Shown here piece by piece: positions 4,242 through 32,142 of a stretch of DNA of 32,142 nucleotides. The stretch is from positions 1-32,142 of the forward strand of contig DAGQ01000056.1 of NCBI GenBank assembly GCA_002498205.1, read 5' to 3'. Under the pieces are notes generated by a model. It saw only the letters and a program-made list of their open reading frames with translations, did not search any database and was not told the origin of the DNA. The stretch is from Euryarchaeota archaeon UBA596. Lineage in GTDB: Archaea > Thermoplasmatota > Poseidoniia > Poseidoniales > Poseidoniaceae. The position numbers and the translations under genes are program-made. Positions within the stretch are counted from its first letter, which is position 1; each line of letters starts with the position of its first letter.

Positions 4242-4251
4242 GGAGATAAAA

Positions 4252-5307
4252 ATGGAATTAAATGCCTGGCAGAAGATAGGCCATCGCCTTTTGGGTGGTC
4301 TTTTAAGAAAAAGGGCAAGAGGAGATAAAGAATTATCTAATAATATTCAAAGAGGTAACTTAAACATAATGCCAGAAGTTTTTATGGCAACTAGTATATT
4401 ATCTACAATAGCAACTGTTGGGATTTTAGTTGGGTTAAATGTACTCGTTTTTATGCCAGGAATTGGAGGTGTTGCATTATATGAAAATATTCAAGACCCT
4501 GTTTCAATCCCTCTTTGTGTAGATTGGGCATATTGGCATTCAGATGAGATTGATTATAATCTTAATTGGGGAGTTAATTCTGATGAATTTGGAGAAGTAC
4601 AGTATGGGGGATGTCCTTATTATCAAACTAAATCTTTTCCGGCTCCTTTGAAGATAGTTATTCCAGTACTAACTCTTGGTTTAGGGCCATTGTTGGCATA
4701 TAGAACTTTCATGGGTGGAGCTAAAAGAGCTGCAGAAATGAGATCAAAAGATATTGAAAAATATCTACCTTATGCTGCATCATATACTGCTGCTATGTCT
4801 GCAGCTAATGCAACACCACAGAAAATTTTCCGTTCATTAGCAAAGAACCAAGATATTTATGGAGAAATATCTCATGATTCTGCACAAATTTATAGAGATA
4901 CAAATCTTCTTGGTTTTGATTTAGTTACTGCAATTAAAATGTCTGTAGGAAGGGCAGCATCACCTTGGTTAACTGAGTTCTTTCAAGGAATGGAAGGTAC
5001 TTTAACAGCAGGAGGTAATCTCAAGATATATTTCTTAAATCGTGCTGAACATTACATGAGAGAGAATAGAACAAGATTGCACGTATTTTTAGAAACATTA
5101 GCAATGCTTGCAGAATCTTATGTTGTAGTTGCAGTGGCTATGCCTCTGTTTTTACTTGTAATGCTCGTAATTATGTTTTGGGTTAGTGGTTCTGGTTCTA
5201 CAATGGATGAAAGTACGCTTTACTTTATTGTGCTAGGATTTTTACCAATGATTCATATTGCTTATGGATATTTAGTCTGGGCAATGTCAGCAGATCAAAA
5301 TATGTGA
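4252..5307 (+). CDS. Polytopic membrane protein with one T2SSF (FlaJ/TadB/PilC-type platform) domain
   Basis: AAGGAGAT SD before the ATG. The cytoplasmic block KYLPYAASYTAAMSAANATPQKIFRSLAK...LLGFDLVTAIKMSV...AGGNL fits the T2SSF pattern. Hydrophobic helices at both ends. Follows the ATPase by 10 nt. Confidence 0.75.
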   Translation: MELNAWQKIGHRLLGGLLRKRARGDKELSNNIQRGNLNIMPEVFMATSILSTIATVGILVGLNVLVFMPGIGGVALYENIQDPVSIPLCVDWAYWHSDEIDYNLNWGVNSDEFGEVQYGGCPYYQTKSFPAPLKIVIPVLTLGLGPLLAYRTFMGGAKRAAEMRSKDIEKYLPYAASYTAAMSAANATPQKIFRSLAKNQDIYGEISHDSAQIYRDTNLLGFDLVTAIKMSVGRAASPWLTEFFQGMEGTLTAGGNLKIYFLNRAEHYMRENRTRLHVFLETLAMLAESYVVVAVAMPLFLLVMLVIMFWVSGSGSTMDESTLYFIVLGFLPMIHIAYGYLVWAMSADQNM

Positions 5308-5315
5308 GGTGGTGA
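5306..5315 (+). promoter_or_regulatory. Shine-Dalgarno site serving a TTG start, overlapping the upstream stop codon
   Basis: GAGGTGGTGA lies 4 nt before TTG at 5320. Confidence 0.6.
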
Positions 5316-5319
5316 AAAA

Positions 5320-6915
5320 TTGGCAAGAAAAAAGAAAAATAAATTAAAAGTTGATTTAGATCTTCCAAAAGATGATTCAACGATGACTTATTTTTATTTG
5401 ATTTGTACCGTTTCAATTATTCTTGGATTAATGTGTATGGGTTTTTGGTTTACAAATAGTAATTTTATGCCCGGAAATGATGATGCAGCTTTACCATTTT
5501 TTGTAAGTACTTATTGTCAAACTACAGCTCAAGACGAATTTGGTAACCCAAACCCTGAACCTTTTGCAAATGCTAGATTAGGATTAGAAACATCATACAA
5601 AGATAATGAAACATGTTCAATTTTAACAGATTCACCATCTCCCGCTGAATGGGTTTTAGATGACCCCTGGGAAGGGATGGATGGAAAGGCCAGATCTTTT
5701 CAAGTACCTGGATTAAAAGACTCACAACTTGCAGGAAAATCCCATCCATTACAGGAATTAAGAGTTGATTGTACAGCAGAATCATTAGATTATCCTACTT
5801 TAGAATACACTGTTAGTATTTTAGATGAAGATGAACAATTACCTGGTGATAGTTGGAGACATATAGGTAGAGCTAATGATAATGATTGTAGTATTTTAAT
5901 TGAACATGCTGACCCTGGAGAATATCAAATTAGATTAATTCCAGAGTGGCCTGAAGGAGTCTCTTCTGCTCCTGACTTTGAATTTAGTTTTACAGTAACT
6001 GCAATGGTTTATGATGGAATACCGAATTATATGAATAATAAATCACAATGGATTGGTCCAGAAGTAAATTTAGGAGGCTTCTCATTACATCCTACAATTT
6101 ATATTAACTTCTTTGGATTTGCTTTCTTTTTGATGATTTACCCAGCTTCAGTTTATTGGGATAGAGTACAGAGAAATATTAACGCAAGGGAAGAAAAATT
6201 TCCAGATTTTTTGAGGGACTTAGCAGAATATTGGAAGGGTGGTTTATCAATGACAGTGGCTGTTACATCACTTGCAAATTCAGAATATGGAGCATTAAAT
6301 GATGATGTAAAAAAGATGTCTAATCAGATTAGTTGGGGGGTGGCTTTTGGAGATGTATTGGAGTTATTTGCTGCAAGAGTAAATACTCCATTGGTTAAAA
6401 GAGCAGTTTCCTTAATTTCTGAGGCTAATAAGGCAGGGGGTAAAATCTCAGATATTCTTGTAACTGCAGCAAGTGATAGTAGAGAAATTAAATTTTTAGA
6501 GGGTGAGCGGAGCAGAACTATTTCATCATATATTGCAGTAATTTGGGTATCTTATTTGGTTTTCATGATTGTTATTGTTATTTTGTCAAGAGTATTTATT
6601 CCAGCGATTGCAGAATCAAATACAGGATCTGGCGGCGACTCTTCAGCACAAATTGGAAATATGCAAATTAGAGCAATAGATCCATTATTATTCTTAGTAG
6701 TTTTCTTTTATGGTGTTACTATGCAAGCATTAGGGAATGGGGCAATGGCGGGTTTAATGGCAAATGGAAGATTAAGTTCTGGATTTAAACATGCAGGAAT
6801 GATGTTAGTTTTAGCGATACTTTCCTTTACTTTTATTTCATTTATCCCTTCTTTGATTGGAGTGCCGACTAGTCCCGGTTTGAATCCTTCTATTGGAATG
6901 TTGAGGATAACGTAA
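5320..6915 (+). CDS. Second T2SSF-domain platform protein (TadC/FlaJ-like) with a ~230-aa extracytoplasmic N-terminal domain
   Basis: FPDFLRDLAEYWKGGLSMTVAVTSLA...ISWGVAFGDVLELFAARV...ISEANKAGGKISDIL is a textbook T2SSF domain. N-terminal TM (MTYFYLICTVSIILGLMCMGFWF), then a 4-Cys soluble region, then several C-terminal TMs. Confidence 0.8.
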   Translation: MARKKKNKLKVDLDLPKDDSTMTYFYLICTVSIILGLMCMGFWFTNSNFMPGNDDAALPFFVSTYCQTTAQDEFGNPNPEPFANARLGLETSYKDNETCSILTDSPSPAEWVLDDPWEGMDGKARSFQVPGLKDSQLAGKSHPLQELRVDCTAESLDYPTLEYTVSILDEDEQLPGDSWRHIGRANDNDCSILIEHADPGEYQIRLIPEWPEGVSSAPDFEFSFTVTAMVYDGIPNYMNNKSQWIGPEVNLGGFSLHPTIYINFFGFAFFLMIYPASVYWDRVQRNINAREEKFPDFLRDLAEYWKGGLSMTVAVTSLANSEYGALNDDVKKMSNQISWGVAFGDVLELFAARVNTPLVKRAVSLISEANKAGGKISDILVTAASDSREIKFLEGERSRTISSYIAVIWVSYLVFMIVIVILSRVFIPAIAESNTGSGGDSSAQIGNMQIRAIDPLLFLVVFFYGVTMQALGNGAMAGLMANGRLSSGFKHAGMMLVLAILSFTFISFIPSLIGVPTSPGLNPSIGMLRIT

Positions 6916-8442: not shown

Positions 8443-8579
8443 GAATTTTGCACCTAGCTCATTAAAGATATACATCGGTAAAAGTATTCACTCTTTTGAT
8501 TTTCTCAATTATTTTTTTCTTTAGGCTATTTGTCTTTAGAACCTCATATATCCAAAAGGTATTACTTTATCCGGATAAC

Positions 8580-9359
8580 ATGCCAGTGGAACTTGAGCCC
8601 ATTTCAGATAAAACAATACTAGTTACTTTAACTGACGAATCAGCAACAAATGCATTCGATCCAGACTTTATGTCCGAATTAGATTTAAAATTAAGACAAA
8701 TAATTGAGGATGATAAAATCCATTCATTTATTTTGACAGGAACTGAAAAATTTTTTTGTGCTGGTGCTAATATTAATGAATTCAGAAAACATTATGATAA
8801 AGGAACAATTGGTAAATGGATTAAAAAAATGACTGATATTTTACATCCTTTAATATTAAAAATTAGGAATAGCGATACAATAATGATTGCTGCAGTAAAT
8901 GGTGCAGCCGCAGGAGCTGGCTTGGGATTAGCACTTTCTGCAGATTATCGTATTGCATCTCCTGGAGGTAAATTTGCAGCATCATATTTTTCTTTAGGCT
9001 TATCTCCTGATGGCGGTACTAGTTGGTTATTACCAAGATTAGTAGGTTCACAAAAATCTAGGATCTTTTTCTTTGAGAATCAAGTTTGGTCAGCAGAAAA
9101 GTGTTTAGAGTACGGAGCGGTTGATGAATTGGTAGATGATGCCTCTTTAATTGAAAAATCGATTAAAAAAGCTAATGAATGGGGGAGTTGGTCAAAAGCA
9201 AGTCGTTCTAGTAAAGATTTACTGGATCATCAAGAGAACAATAATTTAGAATCACATTTAAAATTAGAACAAAGAAGAATTATTGATGCTGGTTTTACTC
9301 CTGAATTTTCAGAAGGTATCAATGCATTTTTAGAGAAAAGAAAAGCAGATTTTAATTAA
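8580..9359 (+). CDS. Enoyl-CoA hydratase/isomerase (crotonase) family protein
   Basis: FFCAGANINEF and NGAAAGAGLGLALSADYRIAS are crotonase oxyanion-hole motifs. The N-terminal 28 aa of the ORF-track call (from 8496) look non-coding. Confidence 0.85.
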   Translation: MPVELEPISDKTILVTLTDESATNAFDPDFMSELDLKLRQIIEDDKIHSFILTGTEKFFCAGANINEFRKHYDKGTIGKWIKKMTDILHPLILKIRNSDTIMIAAVNGAAAGAGLGLALSADYRIASPGGKFAASYFSLGLSPDGGTSWLLPRLVGSQKSRIFFFENQVWSAEKCLEYGAVDELVDDASLIEKSIKKANEWGSWSKASRSSKDLLDHQENNNLESHLKLEQRRIIDAGFTPEFSEGINAFLEKRKADFN

Positions 9360-10528
9360 ATTAAAGTAGCATTATTTTGAATATTCATTTCTTTAATCAA
9401 TTTTTTGAATTCTAATCTGACAATTGCTATGTTACTCTTCACCTCTTTAATTTTTAATTTCATAGTAATTCTATTTTGACGCCATGTTTCTTTGATTAAC
9501 ATTTTTCTATTCTTTTTAGCATCTTTATATTCAATTCTTTTCTTTTTGAGGTCTTTTAATAAATTTCTAATTTGTCTTGTACAATTTTTTAATCTTTGAT
9601 TATAGTCTTCTTTTATTTTTAGATTTAGATTATTTTCTTTGTGTTCATAAGAAGTTTTCATTCTGGCATTTTCAATTGACCATGAAGGGACTTTATGCAA
9701 GTTTTTTGTAATTTTTATGAATGAAAATACCCTTATCCACCATTTTGTTGGATCCCAATGGTACCATTTGTGTCCATTTCGATAATCTGTTTGAAATGTA
9801 TGATGGAAATTATGATATCCTTCACCAAATGTCAGTAAAGATAGAATTGGAGAATCTCTAGATGTATTTTTTGTGGAGTAGTTTTGCTTACCCCAATAGT
9901 GTGCCCCTGAATTAATTAAGAAAGTTCCATGATGAACCATTACAAGACGTACTAATCCTCCCCAAATAAATCCTCCAAAGAAACCTGTTAAACCCCCTAT
10001 TAGAAGCATTCCTATTAATCCCGGAAATATTATCCCAGCAAAACCACCAATTTTGAAAATATGCTTATCTTGCCATGCGAGAATTGGGTCTTCTTGTAAA
10101 TCTTTTACATGTTCGATTTTCTCTTCATCTTCAGAAACCATAACCCATCCCATATGGGCCCAAAAAAACCCCCTTACAATTGAGTATGGATCTTCCTCAG
10201 TATCAGTCTTTAGATGGTGTCTTCTATGATCACTGCACCATTTAATTACTGAATTTTGAAAGGCGGCAGCCCCAAAAATAGCATAAAATAATCTTAAAGG
10301 CCATGATGCAGAATAAGATCTGTGACTAAATAATCTGTGATATCCTGCAGTTATTGAGATTCCACTGACGACATACATAAAAAATAGAATGCCGATTTCA
10401 AAAAAAGAGATTCCAAAATTAACTGTGTACCAATACACACCAATAATTGCCAGAATTGGAGTTCCACATAAAAATGAAGCATTTAAGAGATCTAACTTCC
10501 ACTCCGGCTTATTTGAAACCTCACTCAT
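9356..10528 (-). CDS. Membrane acyl-CoA (delta-9-type) fatty-acid desaturase with a Lys-rich C-terminal coiled-coil extension
   Basis: Three His boxes: HRLFSH, HRRHH, HNFHH. Four hydrophobic segments. Confidence 0.88.
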   Translation of the reverse strand: MSEVSNKPEWKLDLLNASFLCGTPILAIIGVYWYTVNFGISFFEIGILFFMYVVSGISITAGYHRLFSHRSYSASWPLRLFYAIFGAAAFQNSVIKWCSDHRRHHLKTDTEEDPYSIVRGFFWAHMGWVMVSEDEEKIEHVKDLQEDPILAWQDKHIFKIGGFAGIIFPGLIGMLLIGGLTGFFGGFIWGGLVRLVMVHHGTFLINSGAHYWGKQNYSTKNTSRDSPILSLLTFGEGYHNFHHTFQTDYRNGHKWYHWDPTKWWIRVFSFIKITKNLHKVPSWSIENARMKTSYEHKENNLNLKIKEDYNQRLKNCTRQIRNLLKDLKKKRIEYKDAKKNRKMLIKETWRQNRITMKLKIKEVKSNIAIVRLEFKKLIKEMNIQNNATLI

Positions 10529-10636
10529 AATTGTTGCTCATGCCTTACCGTTATTGACTTTGTCGGATTTCCAACATATTTTTTGATAATTTCCAATGAT
10601 TTTAAATTAGAGGGTTTTCTCAAAATATTGAAGCCA

Positions 10637-10738
10637 ATGGATAATATAATTTCTATTTGTAGAAAATGCGGTTTTACAATTGGTATTTTTGTACCAGGAA
10701 TGGAATGTCCTGAATGTGGTGAGTTAATATTTCCTTAA
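10637..10738 (+). CDS. Small (33 aa) zinc-ribbon protein candidate, absent from the ORF track
   Basis: My translation is MDNIISICRKCGFTIGIFVPGMECPECGELIFP, with CxxC...CxxC. Its stop overlaps the convergent stop of the dehydrogenase gene. No convincing SD. Confidence 0.35.
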   Translation: MDNIISICRKCGFTIGIFVPGMECPECGELIFP

Positions 10739-11643
10739 TTTAATGGCAAATCATCTCTTTCAGATTTTTGATTATTTATCCAATTGTAAATACCTTTATC
10801 GGTTTTTTTTCCTAATTCTCCTTTCTCAACTAATTTCTCTAATAATGGATGTGGTAAATAAGAAGAATCTCCAGTGGCTTCAGCAAGACCGAGTAATATA
10901 TCTCTTCTAACATCTAAACCCACTAAATCTGAAAGCTCTAGTGGCCCCATTGGATGTCTATATCCTAAATTCATAGCATAATCAATATCTGATGCACTAG
11001 CAACTCCTTCTGCAAGCATTCTAATCGCTTCATTCCCTAAGACTACACCTAATCTAGAGGTGGCAAACCCGGGACTATCTTTTACCACAATTGCAGTTTT
11101 ATTCATTGAACTTGCAATGTTTTTTGTAATTTCAACTATTTCATTTGATATTTCATCATGCTTAATAATTTCAAGTAATTTCATTAAAGGAACAGGGTTA
11201 AAAAAATGCATTCCAATAACTCTTTTTGGGTTTTTTGTCGATTTAGCAATTTTTGTAATTGAGAGACTAGATGTATTTGTCGCTAAAATACAATTAGGTT
11301 TAGTAAACTCATCAAGTTCTTGAAAAATCTTTATTTTTAAATCGATAATTTCGGGTACAGCTTCAATTACTAAATCAGCATCAGAAACTGCAGAAATTAA
11401 TTTATCAGATGTGTTCAAAAATGATGACCAAATTTCTTTTTGTTCTGTGGTTGTTTTCCCTTTACTAATTCCTTTATCCCAGAATGCATTAATTTTAGCA
11501 ATTCCATTTTTTATACTTTCTGGATATTTATCAAAAAGAATAGTTTCAAATCCACTCTCACAACAAACCTGAGCAATTCCTGCACCCATTGTCCCAGAAC
11601 CAATTACTGTAATTTTTCTTATTTCCAAATTATCACAAACCAT
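10735..11643 (-). CDS. 3-hydroxyacyl-CoA dehydrogenase (NAD-binding, HBD/PaaH-like)
   Basis: KITVIGSGTMGAGIAQ Rossmann motif, NTSSLSIT, and the C-terminal dimerisation domain (GFATSRL...GYRHPMGPLELSDLVGLD). Confidence 0.9.
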   Translation of the reverse strand: MVCDNLEIRKITVIGSGTMGAGIAQVCCESGFETILFDKYPESIKNGIAKINAFWDKGISKGKTTTEQKEIWSSFLNTSDKLISAVSDADLVIEAVPEIIDLKIKIFQELDEFTKPNCILATNTSSLSITKIAKSTKNPKRVIGMHFFNPVPLMKLLEIIKHDEISNEIVEITKNIASSMNKTAIVVKDSPGFATSRLGVVLGNEAIRMLAEGVASASDIDYAMNLGYRHPMGPLELSDLVGLDVRRDILLGLAEATGDSSYLPHPLLEKLVEKGELGKKTDKGIYNWINNQKSERDDLPLN

Positions 11644-11650
11644 GTCTAAC

Positions 11651-12211
11651 TTAAGGTTTTTTCATTTTTTGAGAATACCATTCTACTAATCCTAATTGTA
11701 ATAATCTTTGTCGAGGTAGAGCATATTCAGGTAAAGCCTCGGCTGGTGCATACAGCTTTAACCCCTCAATTACTGATACATATTTCGAATAGCAAGTCAA
11801 ATCATTTGGATCATAAGGAACATTCAAATTCATTAATTCTAAAGCTAAACATGCTTTTTCATCATAAATAGGATGAATATTTTTTAGAAAATGAAGCCAA
11901 TTTGATAATACGATACAATCTACATTCTCAATAGAAAGTAGATTTTCTATCATTGAAATATCGGGATATTTAGTGATTTCTAATGTTGAAATAATTTCCT
12001 GATTAATTTCATCATCCCAATCTTGTTCTTTAAATCCAATATATTCATTGATTTTTTTAATTTGATTATATCCATTTAGTTCCAAGGTATCATAAAGCAT
12101 TCTTTCATAGTTTGGATCTTCAATTTCAGAAATCTCTAATAATTCTGGCAATAAATTGAAAAAATCATTACATTCATTCGTATCAATCCCAAATAAGGAA
12201 GTAGGAATCAA
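11651..12211 (-). CDS. Acidic hypothetical protein (186 aa) embedded in the CoA-thioester cluster
   Basis: TTG start with a GGTGA SD 6 nt upstream. 14-nt gap to the upstream gene and 7 nt to the downstream gene. No motif I recognise. Confidence 0.6.
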   Translation of the reverse strand: MIPTSLFGIDTNECNDFFNLLPELLEISEIEDPNYERMLYDTLELNGYNQIKKINEYIGFKEQDWDDEINQEIISTLEITKYPDISMIENLLSIENVDCIVLSNWLHFLKNIHPIYDEKACLALELMNLNVPYDPNDLTCYSKYVSVIEGLKLYAPAEALPEYALPRQRLLQLGLVEWYSQKMKKP

Positions 12212-12217
12212 TTAGAT

Positions 12218-12222
12218 TCACC
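12218..12222 (-). promoter_or_regulatory. Shine-Dalgarno site serving a TTG start
   Basis: Minus-strand GGTGA lies 6 nt before TTG (12211..12209). Confidence 0.5.
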
Positions 12223-12225
12223 ATC

Positions 12226-13389
12226 TTATTGTAATTGGCCGATTCCAGAATCAATCATTCTTTGCGTAACAGCTCTATGTTCTATCCATTCTTTTTTGAA
12301 TAATTCTTTCAGATTTTCTTCATCTTCATCAGTAGGAAGGAATTTATTACAATATTCTTCATAACTTCCATCATCTTCTCCCCATTCATCTCCTTCTACA
12401 GTATATTGTTTACCAGCATAAGTTCCAATATTTCTATTGAATTTTTCATCTGCGACATAAAATGGAGTTTCATCTTCTAAAATTAGTTTGTTGAATTTCT
12501 CTTCAACTTCACGTACAATCTCATCATGATAATGTCCTCTAGATTCTTCATTGAGTTTTTCTTTATTTACTTCTTGATCTTTTTTAAGTTTCTTTCTCTC
12601 GTCCCATCTTCCTTTAATTCCCCATACGTATGCCCATTCAGCACTAGAAGAATTGTCAGTTCCGAATAAATCATGGGCCGTTGAAACCCATTTATTCATG
12701 TATCTTTGTAGTAAATCTCTAGGGATTACATTTGCTTTAATTATTCTACGCAATCCATTTGCTCCAGTTCCAAGGTGGAAAGCTTCTTCTTTCAACATCG
12801 GTCCCATACTTGCAGCTAATGGCTTGAAACTAGATGTTGACAACATTCCTAATTGGAATTTACCGTCCCTATCTACAAACATAGTATAACAGAAAAAGTC
12901 TAACCAATGATCCATTGGTTCATTAAATGCTCCAAGAAGTCTGCTTCCTGTTTGTGCATTTCTTTCAAGTAGTTTTTGTGCTTCACGTGCACCTTGTTTT
13001 CCAAAATAAGTCATTAACAAATAACACATTTGCCATCCATGGCGTTGTTCTTCAACCATAATTCTAGCAGCTGCATATCTGTCATAATCAGTAGGTGCTG
13101 ATTCTAACAAATGTTTTTGTTGTTCTACAGATGCAAATTCTGTATCTCCTTGGACAGTAATCATTGATAATAATGAGTCACGAATATTTTGGTGAGGTAT
13201 TTGTAAGGACCTTTCCCATTTTGGCCTCCCTGCATAATCGCCAAATTCAATTACTTCTCCAGCTCTTTCCCAGTCGAAAAGAGGTTTTAATTCAAAATCA
13301 CCAGCCCACTTTGCATCAAAGCCAACATTCTCTCTCCATAGTTCAAAATTTGCTACCCATTCGTCAAAAGTGGTTGGTAGTTTCCCCAT
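12226..13389 (-). CDS. Diiron-carboxylate oxygenase, BoxB-like (benzoyl-CoA 2,3-epoxidase family), shortened
   Basis: ITVQGDTEFASVEQQKH, VEEQRHGW, FVDRDGKFQLG and KEEAFHLG. The two ExxH motifs are about 88 residues apart by my count. ATG 13389 has a GTGGT SD; the ORF-track GTG at 13398 is less likely. Confidence 0.7.
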   Translation of the reverse strand: MGKLPTTFDEWVANFELWRENVGFDAKWAGDFELKPLFDWERAGEVIEFGDYAGRPKWERSLQIPHQNIRDSLLSMITVQGDTEFASVEQQKHLLESAPTDYDRYAAARIMVEEQRHGWQMCYLLMTYFGKQGAREAQKLLERNAQTGSRLLGAFNEPMDHWLDFFCYTMFVDRDGKFQLGMLSTSSFKPLAASMGPMLKEEAFHLGTGANGLRRIIKANVIPRDLLQRYMNKWVSTAHDLFGTDNSSSAEWAYVWGIKGRWDERKKLKKDQEVNKEKLNEESRGHYHDEIVREVEEKFNKLILEDETPFYVADEKFNRNIGTYAGKQYTVEGDEWGEDDGSYEEYCNKFLPTDEDEENLKELFKKEWIEHRAVTQRMIDSGIGQLQ

Positions 13390-13450
13390 GAGGACCACGT
13401 GTGAGTAAACGTATTTGAGTTTGTGTATTAGAGAATTTAATTATTACAAA

Positions 13451-14302
13451 TCATTCTCCAGTGAAGTTAGCTACTTTTTTATTCACATAAGCAGCAATTC
13501 CTTCTTTAGCATCATTAGACTGGAATAGATCTGATTGTAATTCACGTTCTAGTGCAAGATGGTATTCAAGCGGTAATTCAATTCCACTTTGTACACTTCT
13601 TTTGATATTTCCAACAGCTTTAACTGCTTTATTTGGTAAAGTAAATTGACCTGCCCAATCTAAAACATCTCTTCTAAAATCTCCAGCATCACTATCAAAA
13701 ATTTGGTTAACTAAATTCATATCATCTCCATCTTCAAATGAGATTAATTCTCCAGTAACCATTAACTCTAATGCTTTTGCTTTTCCAATAAGTCTCGTTA
13801 ACCTGGCTGTACCGCCTGTTCCTGCTAATACACCTAGGTTAATTTCTGGTAATCCTAATTTCCCTGCATTTTTTCTTGCGATTCTCATATCCGCCGCCAT
13901 TGCAATTTCCAAACCACCACCAACGGTATGGCCGTTTAATGCTGCAATTACTAATTTTGGAGTTTGTTCAAGGCGTGATAGAGTTTCATTTGCATGTAAA
14001 CAAAAGAAATATTTATAACGCGGAGAAAGACTATTTAGATAATTGATACTTGCACCAGCAGAAAAGAAATTATTTCCTTTTCCAGTAACTAAAATCACAG
14101 TTACTTTGTCGTCAAAACGTGCATTTAGAATTGCGGTATCTATATCTTCCCACATTTCACGAGTATATGTGTTTACAGGGGTTTTTCCGTCAGTCAGTGG
14201 TTTACCATCAGAATCTGAGGACAGTTCAATTATAGCGATTCCATTTTCGGTTACACCATAATTCACAAGGTTGTTAGGCATGGCTTCTAATTCAAGGCTC
14301 AT
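13451..14302 (-). CDS. Crotonase-family protein, resembling the N-terminal half of BoxC-type enzymes
   Basis: FFSAGASINYL and NGHTVGGGLEIAMAADMRIA crotonase motifs, plus LPEINLGVLAGTGGTARL. ATG 14302 has a GGTGGG SD 7 nt upstream; the ORF-track TTG at 14332 overlaps the upstream gene. Confidence 0.8.
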   Translation of the reverse strand: MSLELEAMPNNLVNYGVTENGIAIIELSSDSDGKPLTDGKTPVNTYTREMWEDIDTAILNARFDDKVTVILVTGKGNNFFSAGASINYLNSLSPRYKYFFCLHANETLSRLEQTPKLVIAALNGHTVGGGLEIAMAADMRIARKNAGKLGLPEINLGVLAGTGGTARLTRLIGKAKALELMVTGELISFEDGDDMNLVNQIFDSDAGDFRRDVLDWAGQFTLPNKAVKAVGNIKRSVQSGIELPLEYHLALERELQSDLFQSNDAKEGIAAYVNKKVANFTGE

Positions 14303-14328
14303 GTTCAGGCCCACCAGTAACCAGTTCT

Positions 14329-15600
14329 TCAATCACTCGCTTCTAGCATCTCTGGGATTGTTTCAGAATCTGAGTCTTTGGAGAAACTAATTTTTCCACC
14401 TTTTCTTTTAATCAGTTCCCATTCTTTCCCAATTTCTACAGCTCTTTCACTAGGGCTCCAAACATCTCTTTTTAGAGCATCCCTAAATGGCATTCTTCTC
14501 ATTTTTCTCCCATCTTTGGTAATTGTTTTTTTCAACATACCTAAATTAGCAAAGAAAAAAACTAATCTTCTAAAAATACCCCATTTGTAGATTTTTTCCA
14601 TAAAAAGTAAACCATCTCCATGCTTTTTTTGATGCTTCATCCAATATTTTGCAACTTGTTTAAATCCTCTATCGCCAATTCTATTCATAAGAAAACGATT
14701 AACAACAGATGTTTTTAATTTTGGTAATAATTTAGATTTGATTTCTAATTCATAATCTGTTTCTCCAAGAATGTCTTTGGCTGCATATACTCCACTGGTT
14801 ATGGCATATCTCATTCCAAAACCCCACATGAAATCTTGCAAACCTCCTGCTTCACCAACATAATATCGGCCATCAGATTTGTATGATGAATGAATTGCAA
14901 AATCTCCTTTTCCACCAACTCTTTTGATCGGAACTCTATCTAGTTCTGGATATTTCTTTTCATACCAATTTATTGTTTCATTTAGAAAACGATCTGATTT
15001 TGATTGTTGACGCCATAAACATGTACAAATCAGACCTATACCATCAATTACGATAAGATATGAGTATGCACCTGGAGCCAATTTATCATTTAGTTGAAAT
15101 GTGACATGATTTGGAAAATTTGTTTTAAAAACCTCCCCATAAGCCACTGCAGATGTCTTTTTTGGACCCGCAGCAATGATATCACAGTCTTTAGGTTTAA
15201 TTCTTGATTTATATTTTATTTCCACTCCTTCTTTCAAAGCAAGGCGCTTAAGTCCTTGATCGATTGTATGTTCATCACTTCCGCGTTCAACAACTCGGAA
15301 TGCTACTCTTGAACTCCAAGGTTTAGTAATTTCGTCATCTGGATGAGCCAAATCAATTTCATGAAAATCTGTGGATTTAAATGCCTCAGGATCAATTCCC
15401 CATTCTCTCAATTCCTCAAAAAAATCTGTTCCTGTTGTCCAATTTTCCAAACCTTGAAAATCACCATCAAATCTAGCTCCAGAATTTTCTCTGATATCAT
15501 GAATGACAACTTTTTTTCCACCCTTTGCTAAAATTATTGATGCAGCAAGCCCGGAAAGACCTGCTCCCATAATTACAATCGGCTTTGAATCATTTGCCAT
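14329..15600 (-). CDS. FAD-dependent oxidoreductase (geranylgeranyl-reductase / aromatic-hydroxylase fold) with a basic C-terminal extension
   Basis: IVIMGAGLSGLAASIILAKGGKKVVIHD dinucleotide-binding motif and YYVGEAGG (GD-type motif). Confidence 0.75.
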   Translation of the reverse strand: MANDSKPIVIMGAGLSGLAASIILAKGGKKVVIHDIRENSGARFDGDFQGLENWTTGTDFFEELREWGIDPEAFKSTDFHEIDLAHPDDEITKPWSSRVAFRVVERGSDEHTIDQGLKRLALKEGVEIKYKSRIKPKDCDIIAAGPKKTSAVAYGEVFKTNFPNHVTFQLNDKLAPGAYSYLIVIDGIGLICTCLWRQQSKSDRFLNETINWYEKKYPELDRVPIKRVGGKGDFAIHSSYKSDGRYYVGEAGGLQDFMWGFGMRYAITSGVYAAKDILGETDYELEIKSKLLPKLKTSVVNRFLMNRIGDRGFKQVAKYWMKHQKKHGDGLLFMEKIYKWGIFRRLVFFFANLGMLKKTITKDGRKMRRMPFRDALKRDVWSPSERAVEIGKEWELIKRKGGKISFSKDSDSETIPEMLEASD

Positions 15601-26630: not shown

Positions 26631-26661
26631 GGCTCTGCCAGCACGCACCTGTGTTGGAGCC
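26631..26661 (+). other. GC-rich imperfect dyad (11 bp with a 3-nt bulge) overlapping the annotated cdc6 start
   Basis: GGCT-ctg-CCAGCAC-gcacct-GTGTTGG-AGCC. By my count 26619-26662 has 30 G+C of 44 nt, within AT-rich intergenic DNA. A G6 run lies at 26684-26689. Confidence 0.45.
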
Positions 26662-27934
26662 GAAAAAACATGTATTGTATCACGGGGGGCGTTTTTTGAC
26701 GAAAAATATTTTTGATGCGGCTCTCGATGCACCTTCTTTATTTATCGATAAAGAACTTCTCAGACATAGTCATGTTCCAAATGAATTACCTCACAGAGAT
26801 TCTGAAATAGAGTCAATCCGATTTAACCTTGTTGAAGCCTTGAAAGGTCATATTCCATCTAATATGATTTTGTATGGTGTCACAGGAGCTGGAAAGACAG
26901 CAGTTATCAGATTTATTTGTGACCAATTAATTGCTAAAGGCAATGAATTAGGTAGGGTTGTTAATCCATTAATTTTGAATTGTAGGAATGTAGATACTCA
27001 ATATAGGGTACTTGCTCATTTAGGAAACTCTTTGATGGAAGATTTTGAAGAAAAGATACCATTTACTGGTTGGCCTACAGATAGAGTATTTGGAAAGTTA
27101 GTAAAAAGAATGGATGCTATGGGAGGTGTCCATGTTATTGTTCTAGATGAAATAGATCATTTAGTTAAAAAATCAGGTGACGATTTATTGTATAACCTTA
27201 CTAATTTGAATGCTGATTTGAATAATGCGAGAAGTTGTGTAATTGGAATTAGTAATGATTTAACTTTTACAGATTACTTGGATCCAAGAGTTCGAAGTAG
27301 ACTTGGTCAGGAAGATGTTGTATTTACTCCATATAAGGCCAGTCATTTAGAGGATATCTTGAGGAAACGTTCTGAGATTGGAATTTCTGAAGGGGTAATT
27401 GAAACAGGTGTGATTCAACTCTGCTCTGCTCTAGCTGCACAAGAACATGGAGATGCTCGTAAAGCACTAGATTTATTACGCGTTTCGACTGAAAAAGCAG
27501 ATCAGGAAGGTTCAACAAAAGTGTGTGAAAGGCATGTAAGAATGGCTCAAAATCAGATTGAATGTGATCAAATCACCCCTGTAATTGCAACTTTACCATT
27601 CCAGCAAAAATTAGTATTATTTTCAGTATTAATTAATGAACAAAACGGATTAAATAATATTGCTACAGGTGAAGTTTATGAGGTTTACAAACAAGCCTGT
27701 CGTTTTGCAGGTGTTAATTTTTTAACTCAAAGAAGAGTTACTGATTTGATTTCAAATTTAGATATGCTAGGGTTGATTAGTGCTAAAACAGTAAGTCGTG
27801 GTAGATATGGAAGAAGTAAAGAAATTAATAGTTGCATTCCAGTAACAATTGAGGCTTCAGAAATAATGCGTAATGCTGATCATGGAATGATTCCAGTAGT
27901 GCAAGGAAAATTTAGATTACAATCAAGGCTTTGA
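26651..27934 (+). CDS. cdc6: Orc1/Cdc6 replication initiator
   Basis: HVPNELPHRDSEIESI, Walker A GVTGAGKTA, Walker B VIVLDEIDHL, and a winged-helix C-terminus. The start is uncertain: GTG 26651 lies inside the dyad, while TTG 26696 follows the G6 run by 6 nt. Confidence 0.88.
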   Translation: MLEPKKHVLYHGGRFLTKNIFDAALDAPSLFIDKELLRHSHVPNELPHRDSEIESIRFNLVEALKGHIPSNMILYGVTGAGKTAVIRFICDQLIAKGNELGRVVNPLILNCRNVDTQYRVLAHLGNSLMEDFEEKIPFTGWPTDRVFGKLVKRMDAMGGVHVIVLDEIDHLVKKSGDDLLYNLTNLNADLNNARSCVIGISNDLTFTDYLDPRVRSRLGQEDVVFTPYKASHLEDILRKRSEIGISEGVIETGVIQLCSALAAQEHGDARKALDLLRVSTEKADQEGSTKVCERHVRMAQNQIECDQITPVIATLPFQQKLVLFSVLINEQNGLNNIATGEVYEVYKQACRFAGVNFLTQRRVTDLISNLDMLGLISAKTVSRGRYGRSKEINSCIPVTIEASEIMRNADHGMIPVVQGKFRLQSRL

Positions 27935-27937
27935 CAA

Positions 27938-28522
27938 TTGTTAAACCAAGTTGCTAAGTCGCAGGGCTTAATGAGTGAAGTAGCGGACGAAGCAACAACT
28001 AGTTTTTTGGTACCAAGTAAAAGGATTTCTGGTTGGTTATTTATTCTTTCAATTTGGGGTATTTTGTTATGGTTACTTAATTTATTGAAAATGGCTACAC
28101 CCACAGGAGATAAGGTTGTTTGGTCTAGTCTACTTTCGATAGGTTTAATCGGTGGAGATTATCAAACAACTAATCCCGATTTTAGACCATTTAGTGATGG
28201 AATTTTTATCATACTCTGTGTTATAATTAATGTTTTAGCAGTAAGGGGAATTAACTCAAATGTTGAAGGTGGTATGAAAGGTTGGTTAATGAATATTAAA
28301 TCTGACTTTTGGCCTGCATTGGTAGATTTTTCTGGTAGTATTAGAAAGACAGTATCGTTATGGTGTATTTTAATTGGAATTTCCTTTTACATAACTTGGG
28401 GTATTTTGAATGGTGGATGGGTAGATCCTGGAGTTTATGCTGTAGCTGCCCCATTTGTAGCATTTGGTTGGGCATTTGGCAAATTAGCAGATGCAGAAGC
28501 TTCCGAGCCAAATGAAAACTAA
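27938..28522 (+). CDS. Hypothetical integral membrane protein (about 4 TM)
   Basis: Hydrophobic segments WLFILSIWGILLWLL, GIFIILCVIINVLAV, LWCILIGISFYITWGIL and AVAAPFVAFGWAF. The start may be ATG 27971. Confidence 0.6.
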   Translation: MLNQVAKSQGLMSEVADEATTSFLVPSKRISGWLFILSIWGILLWLLNLLKMATPTGDKVVWSSLLSIGLIGGDYQTTNPDFRPFSDGIFIILCVIINVLAVRGINSNVEGGMKGWLMNIKSDFWPALVDFSGSIRKTVSLWCILIGISFYITWGILNGGWVDPGVYAVAAPFVAFGWAFGKLADAEASEPNEN

Positions 28523-29565
28523 TTGGGAATAAAAGTTTCAATTCTAGATTTACATCTCAATTTTACTTTTTCGTCTGAAATACAAATAACAATCCCTTCA
28601 TTTGGTTGCCCATAAATTACGTATGCATCTAGTGGTAATGCTAGATGTAAGATGATTGGAGCAAGATCCTCTTCACCTTCGACTTTAATCATGACTTTAT
28701 GATTTGATTTCGCTGCAGAGATTAAGCAATTACTAAATTCTGGTGTAATTTTACCAGCGGGATTTTTACAATTGATTATCTCATCATAGCCTTGAATTTT
28801 TGGAATTAATTCCTCTGGTAAATCTTGTCTTTTTGTCCTCCCGTCAATTACAGAAATATCTGGAATTATTCCACTTTGTCTTAGTGCTGAAACACAAACA
28901 TCACCAACCGCTACAACTTTCCCTGAAATTTGATCAAAATCAAAATCCTTTTTTAATTTTGAAATTGCAATTGATGTATCTTCTTCTGGACCTTCAAATA
29001 ATGTTCCAAATGGTTTTTTGAGTGTACCTTCAATAGATTTAGGCATTTGTAATATGTTTGATATTTTTGAATCATCAATCCATTTTTCTCCTTCTCTAGT
29101 GTATGTGCCATTTCTGATTAAACTACTAGATAAAATACTTCCATCTTTGGTAAGAAAATGTTCTACTGAGATGATGTTTAATGGTTCTAAATTAGACTCT
29201 AATCTTGTTGAGTTGATTTGTTCACATGCAGGTAAGGTTTCTTCTGTACAAATTATTGCATCACAATCGTTTCTCCATTCTGCAGGACCTACGTTATCTT
29301 CTAATTCGTTGATAAATACTCTTGGTGAATCTCCGTTTCTAAAACCTATTTCATTTTGTTTTTTTCCTATCCATGACTTCAAGAAAGAACTACGTTCACT
29401 AAATGATTGGACAGCCCCCGTTTTTTGAGATGCTATTTTATCAGAAGTAATCCAAATTTCTAGCGCATCACATTCTTTTAAAGCAGTTAGAATTAATTTT
29501 TCATGACCTTGGTGGAAATGGTCAAAAGTCCCTCCAAGTAAACCTCTCTCAAACGGTCTTGCCAT
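28519..29565 (-). CDS. Fusion of archaeal phosphopantetheine adenylyltransferase with a DUF359-type (GTP-dependent) dephospho-CoA kinase
   Basis: N-terminus GGTFDHFHQGHEKL (nucleotidyltransferase HxGH). C-terminus VAVGDVCV...SVIDGRTKR...NPAGKITPE...KVEGEEDLAPI...YGQPNEGIV, matching the DUF359 pattern as I know it. Confidence 0.75.
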   Translation of the reverse strand: MARPFERGLLGGTFDHFHQGHEKLILTALKECDALEIWITSDKIASQKTGAVQSFSERSSFLKSWIGKKQNEIGFRNGDSPRVFINELEDNVGPAEWRNDCDAIICTEETLPACEQINSTRLESNLEPLNIISVEHFLTKDGSILSSSLIRNGTYTREGEKWIDDSKISNILQMPKSIEGTLKKPFGTLFEGPEEDTSIAISKLKKDFDFDQISGKVVAVGDVCVSALRQSGIIPDISVIDGRTKRQDLPEELIPKIQGYDEIINCKNPAGKITPEFSNCLISAAKSNHKVMIKVEGEEDLAPIILHLALPLDAYVIYGQPNEGIVICISDEKVKLRCKSRIETFIPN

Positions 29566-29619
29566 TGAACAACTGATATTGGAATCACTCTTGAGTTTTT
29601 GGTTATTTTTTGAAATTTA

Positions 29620-29885
29620 GGGCCCTGGTGACTAACGGCCAATATCACTGTTTCCTCCGAGGCCTGACCCATTCACCAGGGCGTTGAGGACTACGGGGTT
29701 GTCCAACCATCATCCAAAAGTCCGGCGGGGACCCATTCGTAGCCACTATTGTCTGTTTTTGCAACAAGGATCATTTCAAAAGATCACCATGTTCTTCGAT
29801 ACAGACGTACCACAACTTGGTATCGTCATTTCATATTTCCATCCGGCGAGGGGCAGAAATCCATGCGATGTTGCAGTGTGGTAAA
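29620..29885 (+). ncRNA. GC-rich structured non-coding island: one ~265-nt RNA or two adjacent RNAs. Family unassigned.
   Basis: By my count 29621-29745 has 73 G+C of 125 nt, against 10 of 39 in the preceding 39 nt. Perfect 10-bp stem 29622-29631/29673-29682. Second stem 29691-29695/29738-29742. GACCCATTC repeated at 29666 and 29730. TCCGGCG(G/A)GGG repeated at 29721 and 29842. Lies between two minus-strand genes. Strand call rests on G-rich loops only. Confidence 0.5.
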
Positions 29886-29918
29886 TCTCTGTAATTGTTA
29901 TTGCTTTTGAATTCTTTG

Positions 29919-32142
29919 TTAGGAAATTTTTAACTGTGGTGAATTTCTTAAATTTTCATGAAACCCTGTTTTTCTTGAAAGAATTCTTTTTGATACATTT
30001 TCATCACCTTCAAAATCAATTAATAAATTAAGATCTGGCCATAATTCGAGAGGTTGAACTAACCAACTAATGTGTTTGTGAGACTTTCCAATTGTTGGAG
30101 ATACACCCTTTCTGACAAATTCTAGAGAGTTTTTTAAATCTAATAGTTGTAGAATTCCCTCTTTGTCTCTAATTGAATCCATTCTATCTAGGGTTTGTAA
30201 TAATAATTCAAATAAGTCACTATTACATCCTGGATGTTTAATTTCTCCAAATCCTGGAAGTTGGTGGATTTCTTTTGGCTCTCTTAAAATTGCAGCAGAC
30301 CATGAAATATTTTCAGATTCTAGCCAAGACCTACCCTTCGAACTGTCCATACAAATTTTCAATAATTCTTCTGCTAATGGAGCCCACCATTCAATGTCGC
30401 CTTTTGAAATAATTTTTGAAGCATCATCAAAAGTTAAATTAATATCTGTTTCGTATTTTGAAATTAACTTCTTCCAAATAGCAACTTTCGAATCTTCATC
30501 ATTGATTTCACTATTTGATATTGTAGAAATCCAGTGATCATCAATTTCATTTAATTTTTGCATCCAATGAAGTATGTTTAAGACCTCATTAAAATCCCCT
30601 AAAGATAATTTTTGATTTAATTTAATCCATGGCTTTAATCCTAATTTGATTAGGTTTATTCGAATTGATGGTGCTAACCAAGGGGCAGACGAGATTAGAC
30701 ATGAAAACCACCATGCTTTTTCTTCTTCTGATCCATTAAGTAATATTTTTCTATAATTTAATGAAGAATCAGGATTATTTTGCAAATTAGAAATTAATAT
30801 TTTTCTAGATTTTAATTTCCATTCATTAGGTGCATTTAATGCTATTTTTCCTATGAATTCTATTGGTATTAATTCAGGAGGCAATAATTCTACCCAATGA
30901 GGCTCAATTCTATTGGAAATACGTTGCCAACGAAGCCATCTTAAGTTGGATGGTGTAATAATCCAAGATTCTAATGGATTCTCAAATTCTAATTTATTAG
31001 CTTCAAATTCATTTCCTGTGGGGTACTGTTTACAACATTCAATAATTAAATTTGATTTTATTAAATTTATATCAATTTGAGATTTTTTCATAAGTCTCAT
31101 TAATTCTGCTGGTATTGTGTAATTTTCTTCTGCTACAGTCCCCTCAGATTGGGTGGTGGAGATTTCAACACTAATTGGTAGGATTATTCCTCTGTCTAGA
31201 TGTAGATTCATGATTGGTAAGTTAGATTGTTTTGTTTCTCTTAACATCAGATTGGGCTTTCTTCCATTCCATTTTTCAATTATAATTATTCTTAACGCTG
31301 GGTGTCTAAGAATTACGTCTGAATCTATATTGGAAAGTTCAATATTTCTCGGCCATTGTATTGATAGGGGTACACCTTTGAAGTCTTTCATTACCCATTC
31401 AATTATTGACATTAGTGCGTTTTTTCTAATTTGTGAATTATCAAAAAACAACTCGTTTGATTTTTCCTGCTCACTCCATTTAGAATTGCCCCAGTCTAAT
31501 TTGAATTTACTCCATGTTGCTTGCTCTCCTGATGTTCTTCGTTTTTTCTTTACTCGCTTAACAATTCCTAATTCCTCTAAAATGAACTCAAATCTTTCAT
31601 TTTGAGACTCTTCGGTGAGCTTAGGGTGTATTCTTTTTACCCAATATTCTAATATTTTTATCGGAAATTCGTTAACTTCTCTAGATAATAAACTTGCTTC
31701 TCCAATAATTATTCCGTCACATGCGGCGGCTTCAAGAAGTAAATTAATTCCTAACCTTCTTCCAATCTCTGCAATTACTGGTCTTTGTGGCTTAATTTTA
31801 TGTTTGTCATCATGGAATGTGGCTAGTGTCCAACTATAGTCTTCGTTTAGTAATGTTGGTAATTTTGGAAAAATATTTTCTGGTGTTTTTGGAAACCATG
31901 AACCAACGGGTAGTGAAAATTTTTTTTCTGGTTCTAGTAGTCTTGCTCTTATTATGCAAATAGCCTTTTCTTTTTGATCCCACTCAGTTATTCCTTCTGG
32001 ATTGCTTTGTTCAGGCTCTTTAATTCGTTCAAGGGTGGGAATTGAAAACCACCTAATTTCAAACTCTCTTGAAATTGCCCATGTCCATTCTGCCTCTACC
32101 CCTTTATTTCTAGTGGAACTTTGGGATTCAAAATCAGATGCA
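29919..32142 (-). CDS. Large Trp-rich hypothetical protein, 5'-partial (at least 741 aa in the window)
   Basis: The ORF track stops at a TTG (31451). My manual translation of the same minus-strand frame has no stop from 31452 to 32142 (...ASDFESQSSTRNKGVEAEWTWAISREF...FHDDKHKIKPQRPVIAEIGRRLG...KSNELFFDNSQ). No motif I recognise. Confidence 0.65.
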   Translation of the reverse strand, partial: ASDFESQSSTRNKGVEAEWTWAISREFEIRWFSIPTLERIKEPEQSNPEGITEWDQKEKAICIIRARLLEPEKKFSLPVGSWFPKTPENIFPKLPTLLNEDYSWTLATFHDDKHKIKPQRPVIAEIGRRLGINLLLEAAACDGIIIGEASLLSREVNEFPIKILEYWVKRIHPKLTEESQNERFEFILEELGIVKRVKKKRRTSGEQATWSKFKLDWGNSKWSEQEKSNELFFDNSQIRKNALMSIIEWVMKDFKGVPLSIQWPRNIELSNIDSDVILRHPALRIIIIEKWNGRKPNLMLRETKQSNLPIMNLHLDRGIILPISVEISTTQSEGTVAEENYTIPAELMRLMKKSQIDINLIKSNLIIECCKQYPTGNEFEANKLEFENPLESWIITPSNLRWLRWQRISNRIEPHWVELLPPELIPIEFIGKIALNAPNEWKLKSRKILISNLQNNPDSSLNYRKILLNGSEEEKAWWFSCLISSAPWLAPSIRINLIKLGLKPWIKLNQKLSLGDFNEVLNILHWMQKLNEIDDHWISTISNSEINDEDSKVAIWKKLISKYETDINLTFDDASKIISKGDIEWWAPLAEELLKICMDSSKGRSWLESENISWSAAILREPKEIHQLPGFGEIKHPGCNSDLFELLLQTLDRMDSIRDKEGILQLLDLKNSLEFVRKGVSPTIGKSHKHISWLVQPLELWPDLNLLIDFEGDENVSKRILSRKTGFHENLRNSPQLKIS

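Follow-up and report, generated by a model that had tools for sequence, protein, structure and literature searches.

A G+C-rich intergenic island in a 32,142-nt stretch of DNA (the window) from the Euryarchaeota archaeon UBA596 (contig DAGQ01000056.1, positions 1 to 32,142) is very probably a single minus-strand gene of about 265 nt that encodes a four-hairpin box H/ACA guide small RNA (sRNA), of which hairpins H1–H3 match the motifs of the known archaeal sRNAs Pab40, Pf7 and Afu4. The guide RNA probably directs pseudouridine formation in the ribosomal RNA (rRNA) of its host, a member of Marine Group II (Poseidoniales), which are uncultured and among the most abundant planktonic archaea. Judged by its sequence, the sRNA is an ordinary housekeeping RNA, a divergent HgcG/Pab40 relative missed by the Rfam threshold.

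The island sits in a 353-nt gap between two minus-strand genes. A preliminary description, made from the letters of the window, had regarded it as a structured non-coding RNA gene that stands out by its high G+C from an AT-rich archaeal background, and this is supported by conservation and covariation. Its G+C counts were reproduced for all four segments, namely 73/125 (29621–29745), 33/89 (29746–29834), 26/51 (29835–29885) and 10/39 (29582–29620), and the G+C content of the sRNA is about 50% against 34.3% for the whole window. The description had allowed either for a divergent member of a known family or for an undescribed RNA; the former stands, as the RNA is HgcG-like H/ACA and lies below the Rfam gathering threshold, and the latter does not. 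The parts of the RNA are as follows.

29619..29883, minus strand: whole sRNA, about 265 nt, four tandem H/ACA-type hairpins H0–H3, delimited by the conserved block and covariance models
29808..29883, minus strand: H0, lower stem UACCACA/UGUGGUA
29876–29870 and 29821–29815, minus strand: H0 pocket strands CUGCAAC and ACCAAGU
Within H0, minus strand: kink-turn (K-turn), CAUG-GA-UUUC opposite GAAA-UAU-GA-AAUG
Within H0, minus strand: apical element CCCCUCGCCGGA, the third hairpin of the preliminary description
29745..29806, minus strand: H1, lower stem GUCUGU/ACAGAC
29800–29793 and 29763–29757, minus strand: H1 pocket strands AUCGAAGA and UGCAAAA
Within H1, minus strand: kink-loop (K-loop), UGA...GAU
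29683..29744, minus strand: H2, lower stem GGCUACG/CGUAGUC
Within H2, minus strand: pocket strands AAUGG(GUC) and (GAC)AACCC
Within H2, minus strand: K-loop, CCGGA...GAUGG
29619..29682, minus strand: H3, 10-bp lower stem GCCCUGGUGA/UCACCAGGGC, the first hairpin (a) of the preliminary description
29672–29665 and 29636–29632, minus strand: H3 pocket strands AUGGGUCA and GUUAG
Within H3, minus strand: K-loop, CGGA...GUGAU

The four hairpins are built alike, each with a lower stem of 6–10 bp, an internal loop with pocket strands of 5–8 nt and an upper stem closed off by tandem G-A/A-G, where the 3' side carries a C-box-like RUGAU. The apical motif is a true K-turn in H0 and a K-loop in H1–H3, and in every hairpin the 5'-strand GA and the 3'-strand UGA show little or no variation. 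The H/ACA criteria applied were a pocket of 5–11 nt per strand, a K-turn or K-loop about 10 layers above the pocket and an ANA triplet 14–16 nt 3' of the upper stem; counted by hand from the sequence, the GA stem comprises 10 layers in H0 and in H3, 9–10 in H1 and 9–11 in H2 depending on the register. Archaeal H/ACA motif anatomy as found here is summarised in PMC2377435 and PMC4652768. The perfect 10-bp stem GCCCTGGTGA/TCACCAGGGC of the preliminary description is present, and its second and third hairpins were both found as described there. The 9-mer GACCCATTC also occurs twice, at 29666 and 29730, and the repeat is thus real, but it is not the simple duplicated module that had been suggested, as on the RNA strand its GGGUC core sits in the part of the H2 and H3 pockets that is invariant in the family.

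Only one nucleotide lies between H0 and H1. A CCC(U)CGCCGGA motif is found twice on the minus strand, in the apical part of H0 (29840–29855) and in the 5' K-loop strand of H2 (29721–29731), and the apical element of H0 is confined to some lineages (the window clade, L013 and Thalassarchaeaceae-like loci), with a short GCUACUGUGAAAUUGC loop elsewhere. H0 may have arisen by duplication of H2.

Proteins homologous to the PPAT/DUF359 product encoded next to the island bear source names such as Candidatus Poseidoniales and Poseidoniaceae. Scanning species-representative genomes yielded 80 loci whose titles were almost all Poseidoniales, Poseidoniaceae, Thalassarchaeaceae or unclassified euryarchaeotes. 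An nhmmer profile recovered a homolog in 73 of these 80 loci. Covariance models of H2 and H3 (R1) and of H0 and H1 (R2) matched 78 and 72 of 81 sources, respectively, and each gave one match in the window, on the minus strand (R2 at 29885–29749, R1 at 29747–29613). Because relatives carry a single syntenic match per locus, which always directly precedes the PPAT/DUF359 gene in the same orientation, the element is, by this comparison, order-wide, syntenic, strongly constrained and non-coding.

BLASTN of the island showed 90–95% identity in six loci (L001–L006, hereafter the six closest relatives), in which the PPAT/DUF359 protein was only 59–77% identical. At the DNA level the block 29883–29619 is 90–95% identical in these loci against 67–80% for the PPAT gene and 35–79% for the flanks, a contrast that marks the island as no mere chance feature. 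The onset of conservation in the seven-sequence alignment is abrupt, at ACCACAC / ACCACACUGCAAC (29881), and conservation stops near GGGCCCYAAAU (about 29618).

The alignment of syntenic regions from relatives, a check that the preliminary description had itself proposed, shows covariation in the stems. In the alignment of H2 and H3 (A4, 69 distinct sequences) 90.2% of cells are paired, 23 of the 29 pairs have changed on both sides and the covariation score is 0.508, against 34–54% paired and a score of 0.07–0.17 in slid controls. For H0 and H1 (A6, 67 distinct sequences) the corresponding values are 91.4%, 18 of 22 pairs and 0.660, against 27–42% and 0.05–0.12 in slid controls; both alignments were fitted to the covariance model and hence lean to the structure, and the margin over the slid controls is still large. 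The same compensatory changes are visible by eye in plain MAFFT alignments. Resolved by hairpin, H0 (A6 helices 1–2) is paired in 91–98% with 8 of 11 pairs changed on both sides, H1 (A6 helices 3–4) has 10 of 11 pairs changed on both sides, and H3 (A4 helices 3–4) is paired in 95–96% with 11 of 13 changed on both sides.

Besides a few stem bases, the invariant columns are the GA/UGA bases of the K-turn and K-loops and the pocket strands. The invariant pocket bases are GCAAC and ACC in H0 and CGAAG and GCAA in H1; H2 is invariant at GGUC, GA, UGA, AC and ACC, and H3 at GGGUCA and GUU, the base after GUU being A in at least 90% of sequences. Three GUC/GAC pairs of H2 never vary, and this segment may be guide sequence rather than helix. 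Invariant loops between covarying stems are the pattern that a guide RNA for conserved targets should produce.

A protein-coding reading of the island was considered and rejected. Homolog lengths of 226–295 nt span all three residue classes modulo 3, which speaks against the short conserved frame that the preliminary description had named as an alternative outcome. On four public contigs the gap is annotated without a gene, the substitutions follow stem covariation, and although stop-free stretches of 79–93 codons exist, their frame and strand differ between homologs.

The preliminary description had read the island on the plus strand, but several features place the RNA on the minus strand. 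G-U makes up about 10% of paired cells across homologs, and because these pairs would be A-C mismatches on the other strand, they assign the RNA to the minus strand; only this strand, moreover, carries the GA/UGA signatures of the K-turns, the promoter-like motif described below and, in relatives, the ACA boxes. An island made up of at least two distinct small RNAs, or of an RNA on the plus strand, would have in its favour the T5 run at 29756–29760, which is present on the plus strand and had been proposed as a terminator, and the plus strand folds nearly as well as the minus strand (−88.1 versus −88.9 kcal/mol), with minimum free energy z-scores of −1.55 and −2.2, respectively, that are unimpressive when taken alone. 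On the RNA strand, though, the run reads as A5 inside the invariant-rich 3' pocket strand of H1, the gap between H0 and H1 is 1 nt, and the hairpins always occur together and in the same order, so that one four-hairpin RNA takes the place of the two RNAs that had been envisaged. Separate or plus-strand RNAs are accordingly regarded as extremely unlikely.

The promoter-like element and the adjoining genes are as follows.

29904..29911, minus strand: promoter-like element UUCAAAAG, a candidate TATA box some 28 nt before H0
28519–29565, minus strand: PPAT/DUF359 fusion gene (Pfam), 348 aa, downstream of the sRNA
29919–31451, minus strand, running past the window: large gene upstream of the sRNA (867 aa on the public contig L323), conserved on several contigs

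In 57 of 67 distinct homologs a TT[CG]A[ATC] motif begins 26–29 nt before the H0 start, and it is probably an archaeal TATA box. In fuller form this conserved motif is TTCAWAWA-like, lies about 27 nt from the sRNA and follows a C/G-rich stretch (−35 to −30), a pattern that looks like a Poseidoniales promoter consensus of B recognition element (BRE) and TATA box. From the conservation onset together with the promoter distance we infer a 5' end of the sRNA near 29883, and its 3' end is uncertain by about 10 nt.

The PPAT/DUF359 gene encodes phosphopantetheine adenylyltransferase fused with DUF359 and belongs to coenzyme A synthesis. The island could instead be a cis-acting structured 5' leader (riboswitch or attenuator) that regulates this gene. 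It lies immediately upstream and on the same strand in 72–78 of 80 genomes, the distance from the sRNA to the start codon is only about 50 nt, and a separate terminator is not evident. Such a leader would nevertheless leave unexplained an architecture that is that of an H/ACA guide (K-loops, pockets and the ACA boxes of relatives), pocket strands that match conserved rRNA sites, and a sole Rfam resemblance to an H/ACA sRNA; no coenzyme A-related riboswitch is known to resemble the element. We therefore consider a regulatory leader very improbable. Co-transcription with the PPAT gene followed by processing is compatible with the guide RNA as well.

Rfam supplied the family. At gathering thresholds there was no match in the whole window, and ARAGORN found no tRNA. 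Under permissive settings (29500–30000) RF00064, HgcG (Pab40), matched the minus strand over the full model with 22.7 bits and E=2.3e-4. This was the only Rfam match with E below 0.01, and the same family was again the sole match in a distant relative (L011, 21.6 bits). H1, H2 and H3 align to Pab40 motifs 1, 2 and 3 in the same order. The preliminary description had dismissed signal recognition particle (SRP) RNA, RNase P RNA and 5S rRNA, and Rfam returned no match to any of these families or to tRNA at E up to 10 in 29500–30000 on both strands. Lone weak Rfam matches to MIR171, FAS-AS1, SNORD21, rivX and RMST (E 0.25–8.5) have no structural or comparative support and are attributed to chance. 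An inverted repeat of 9–10 bp, GATATTGG / CCAATATC, at 29573–29584 and 29640–29650 links the PPAT 5' leader to the K-loop strand of H3; this complementarity, the source of the spurious MIR171 match, is not kept in L001 and L002 and was likewise taken as chance.

The same description had ruled out H/ACA guides, a verdict that is overturned by the relatives, about 90% of which keep the ACA boxes that were lost in the window clade; the rejection is understandable because the copy of that clade is without them. Of 69 distinct sequences, 63 have ACA directly after the H3 stem and 62 have NNACA after the H2 stem, the latter at the canonical distance of 14–15 nt from the upper stem. H1 carries variable ACA/ACU/AAA/AUA-like triplets that are poorly conserved across the family, and no ANA box follows H0, which abuts H1 in the window. 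The only ANA triplet of the window copy is the AUA of H1 at 29749–29747, 14 nt after the upper stem. Where relatives have ACA, H2 of the window shows a degenerate UCA (29687–29685, within CUCAAC; NCA type, 13–14 nt) and H3 shows CCU (29621–29619), and H0 is followed by C/ACG.

The exceptions to the ACA pattern coincide precisely with the window plus its six closest relatives, in which the H3 box is replaced by CCU, CCC or ACC, and because of this coincidence the ACA loss is, in phylogenetic terms as read from these sequences, a derived trait of one sub-clade. It could be argued that the RNA of this sub-clade is a decaying relic in which H2 and H3 no longer recruit Cbf5 and are drifting towards a pseudogene, since the change of ACA to UCA after H2 and to CCU/CCC/ACC after H3 is restricted to these seven sequences and an ANA box has been described as a requirement for Cbf5 binding (PMC2377435). 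Against decay stands the contrast in conservation between this RNA and its surroundings given above. The pockets are unchanged in the sub-clade, apart from L005, whose H3 pocket differs slightly at its 5' edge, and the stems have been kept by compensatory and wobble changes (A-U to G-C in H0, C-G to U-A in the H2 K-loop stem and GA/UC to GUG/CAC in H3). Boxless or degenerate-box (NCA, CCA) H/ACA-like sRNAs of Pyrobaculum have, in addition, been classified as productive (PMC4652768). Because it is more conserved than its surroundings and its stems are maintained in this way, the window-clade RNA does not look like a pseudogene, and we give little credence to the relic.

If the ACA-less RNA of the sub-clade is active, then it, together with H0 and H1, which are without a conserved ANA, might represent ACA-box-free Cbf5 recruitment with full lower stems in a lineage of euryarchaeal type, a tentative proposal that we hold to be rather doubtful. 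Such recruitment has hitherto been described only for truncated Pyrobaculum H/ACA-like RNAs, and the route might involve neighbouring hairpins or anchoring through L7Ae/Nop10.

For the guide RNA itself, the mechanism would be that of its family. The pocket strands would pair with rRNA on both sides of a target uridine, the K-turn or K-loop would bind L7Ae, and Cbf5-Nop10-Gar1 would then isomerise the uridine to pseudouridine, the roles of the proteins being assumed from the family. In E. coli numbering the likely targets would be position 2496 beside the peptidyl-transferase centre for H1, U2586 (alternatively U2554/2555) for H2 and U1915 for H3, with H0 as an extra 5' hairpin that is without a target candidate.

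Target scans used stand-in, non-cognate rRNA only, namely E. coli rrnH (L081) and a plasmid-borne operon of Halomicrobium (L322, confirmed by Rfam); in the Halomicrobium tests a U was required at the target position and shuffled guides served as control. The core of H3 predicts UAAC-UN-UGACCC, and helix 69 of Halomicrobium 23S rRNA fits perfectly (GUAAC-UA-UGACCC, 10/10), the target U corresponding to E. coli 1915, a score reached by 0 of 600 shuffled guides. Most relatives have GUUAC in H3, which also pairs with the G before UAAC. The extended H3 guide pairs as well with E. coli 23S rRNA 2196–2210 (12 Watson-Crick pairs and one G-U of 13). Because E. coli has a G as the target base of that site and the invariant core fits helix 69 equally, helix 69 is preferred for H3, and the 2201-region site is kept as a possible second target. 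A metagenome scan with the predicted H3 target CTAACTNTGACCCAT returned 120 loci, mostly random, among which the 23S genes were four, all bacterial.

The GGUC and AACCC strands of H2 match Halomicrobium GGGUU-UA-GACC uniquely (9/9) at the position of E. coli U2586, which 3 of 500 shuffles reach, and for this match the invariable GUC/GAC pairs at the foot of the upper stem would have to open. Another register would address the A-loop at U2554/2555 with a non-canonical unpaired gap of 4 nt (reached by 4 of 600 shuffles), and other H2 registers (GACAACC with AUGGGUCC and variants) gave no convincing site. The H1 core predicts UUUGC-UN-CUUCG, the fuller predicted site at the 2496 equivalent being UUUGC(A)-UN-CUUCGAUG, and the best 23S sites of H1 include the 2496 position in both E. 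coli and Halomicrobium.

These predictions can be set beside published guides. The reported targets of Pab40 are U2588 in domain V for motif 1 and U2016 in stem-loop 69 for motif 3, and motif 2 of Afu4/Pf7 is expected to have its true target at the position equivalent to P. abyssi U2678, which is pseudouridylated in Haloarcula marismortui, in place of an earlier proposal, the equivalent of 2647 (PMC2377435). Through an offset of about 92 nt in domain V, P. abyssi 2588, 2678 and 2647 would correspond to E. coli 2496, 2586 and 2555. H1–H3 thus appear to be the Poseidoniales counterpart of Pab40/Pf7/Afu4, because the same target sites, with the same ambiguity of motif 2, were found independently, and this agreement is the strongest argument for the assignment.

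Several observations weigh against a four-hairpin H/ACA guide. The RF00064 score of 22.7 bits is far under the gathering score of 77 bits. The window copy is without ACA after H2 (UCA), H3 (CCU) and H0, as are the six closest relatives, and Cbf5 binding reportedly depends on an ANA box (PMC2377435). The guide matches rest on non-cognate rRNA, none of it from Poseidoniales. Three registers are possible for H2, none of them fully canonical; the weak Halomicrobium match of H1 (CUUGC-UA-CCUCG, base U) scores 6/10, a value also attained by about 12% of shuffles; and the predicted H0 site UUGGU-UN-GUUGCA has no candidate in E. coli or Halomicrobium rRNA. Genes for Cbf5, Nop10, Gar1 and L7Ae occur neither in the window nor in about 7 kb of contig past its right-hand end, a result that is uninformative.

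The surroundings of the locus yielded further observations. No Pfam match was obtained for the large gene upstream of the sRNA (29919–31451, minus strand). A public contig of 47.7 kb that carries the locus and extends past the right-hand end of the window (L323) holds at 1–2770, a few genes upstream of the sRNA, a giant gene of at least 2777 aa that resembles a type I polyketide or fatty-acid synthase (domains ketoacyl-synt, Acyl_transf_1, PP-binding and KR), which is unusual for an archaeon. An Orc1/Cdc6 gene lies at 26651–27934 on the plus strand, about 600 bp from the PPAT gene, and a replication origin with origin recognition box (ORB) repeats might occupy the intergenic region adjoining it. 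Elsewhere in the window a gene cluster of fatty-acid beta-oxidation type occupies 8496–14332 (two enoyl-CoA hydratases, a 3-hydroxyacyl-CoA dehydrogenase, a fatty acid desaturase-family gene and a PaaA/PaaC-like protein), and separate type IV pilus or archaellum-like ATPase and membrane genes (T2SSE and two T2SSF) lie at 2709–6915.

In summary, the analysis provides a conserved, easily located H/ACA sRNA gene for a whole order, under Rfam thresholds and with a structure backed by covariation, and leads to the prediction that helix 69 and the surroundings of the peptidyl-transferase centre contain pseudouridines. No description of Poseidoniales small RNAs was found, and Cbf5 and Poseidoniales were not mentioned together in the literature searched. 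The biology itself is ordinary, and the wider interest lies in the clade-specific loss of ACA while the RNA is under purifying selection, a natural experiment on the strictness of the ACA need of Cbf5. It is also a lesson in method that dropping a family over one box missing from a single sequence can mislead, and that relatives settle the question.

In comparison with known systems, the closest are Pab40/Pf7/Afu4 of Pyrococcus, Archaeoglobus and Methanocaldococcus, in which H/ACA hairpins with K-loops are likewise arranged in tandem. In relatives, H3 has the 3' pocket strand UGUUAC, which equals the HgcG consensus, the predicted targets (helix 69 and the 2496 and 2586 equivalents) are those published for motifs 3, 1 and 2, and the target of motif 2, or H2, is ambiguous in both. 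The present RNA differs in its extra 5' hairpin H0, which brings it to four motifs, whereas archaeal H/ACA sRNAs have been described with one to three (PMC2377435), a number that it would, if the assignment is true, exceed. It differs also in that H0 is without an ANA box, that of H1 is poorly conserved and the window clade has lost the H2 and H3 ACA, and in its host, which is a mesophilic marine member of the Thermoplasmatota and not a hyperthermophile. Pyrobaculum sR203–sR210 (PMC4652768) share guide hairpins with a K-turn and pocket and with degenerate (NCA, CCA) or missing ANA, but they are without a lower stem, whereas the lower stems of the present RNA are long (6–10 bp) and covarying. 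There is no sequence relationship between the two. The same guide logic is seen in the eukaryotic snR46 and snR191, although eukaryotic H/ACA snoRNAs are two-hairpin molecules that carry H and ACA boxes and lack a K-turn to bind L7Ae. In yeast numbering, snR46 (25S Psi2865) and snR191 (helix 69) presumably target homologous positions. The P. abyssi 2016 and 2588 sites have been described as conserved in eukaryotes (PMC2377435).

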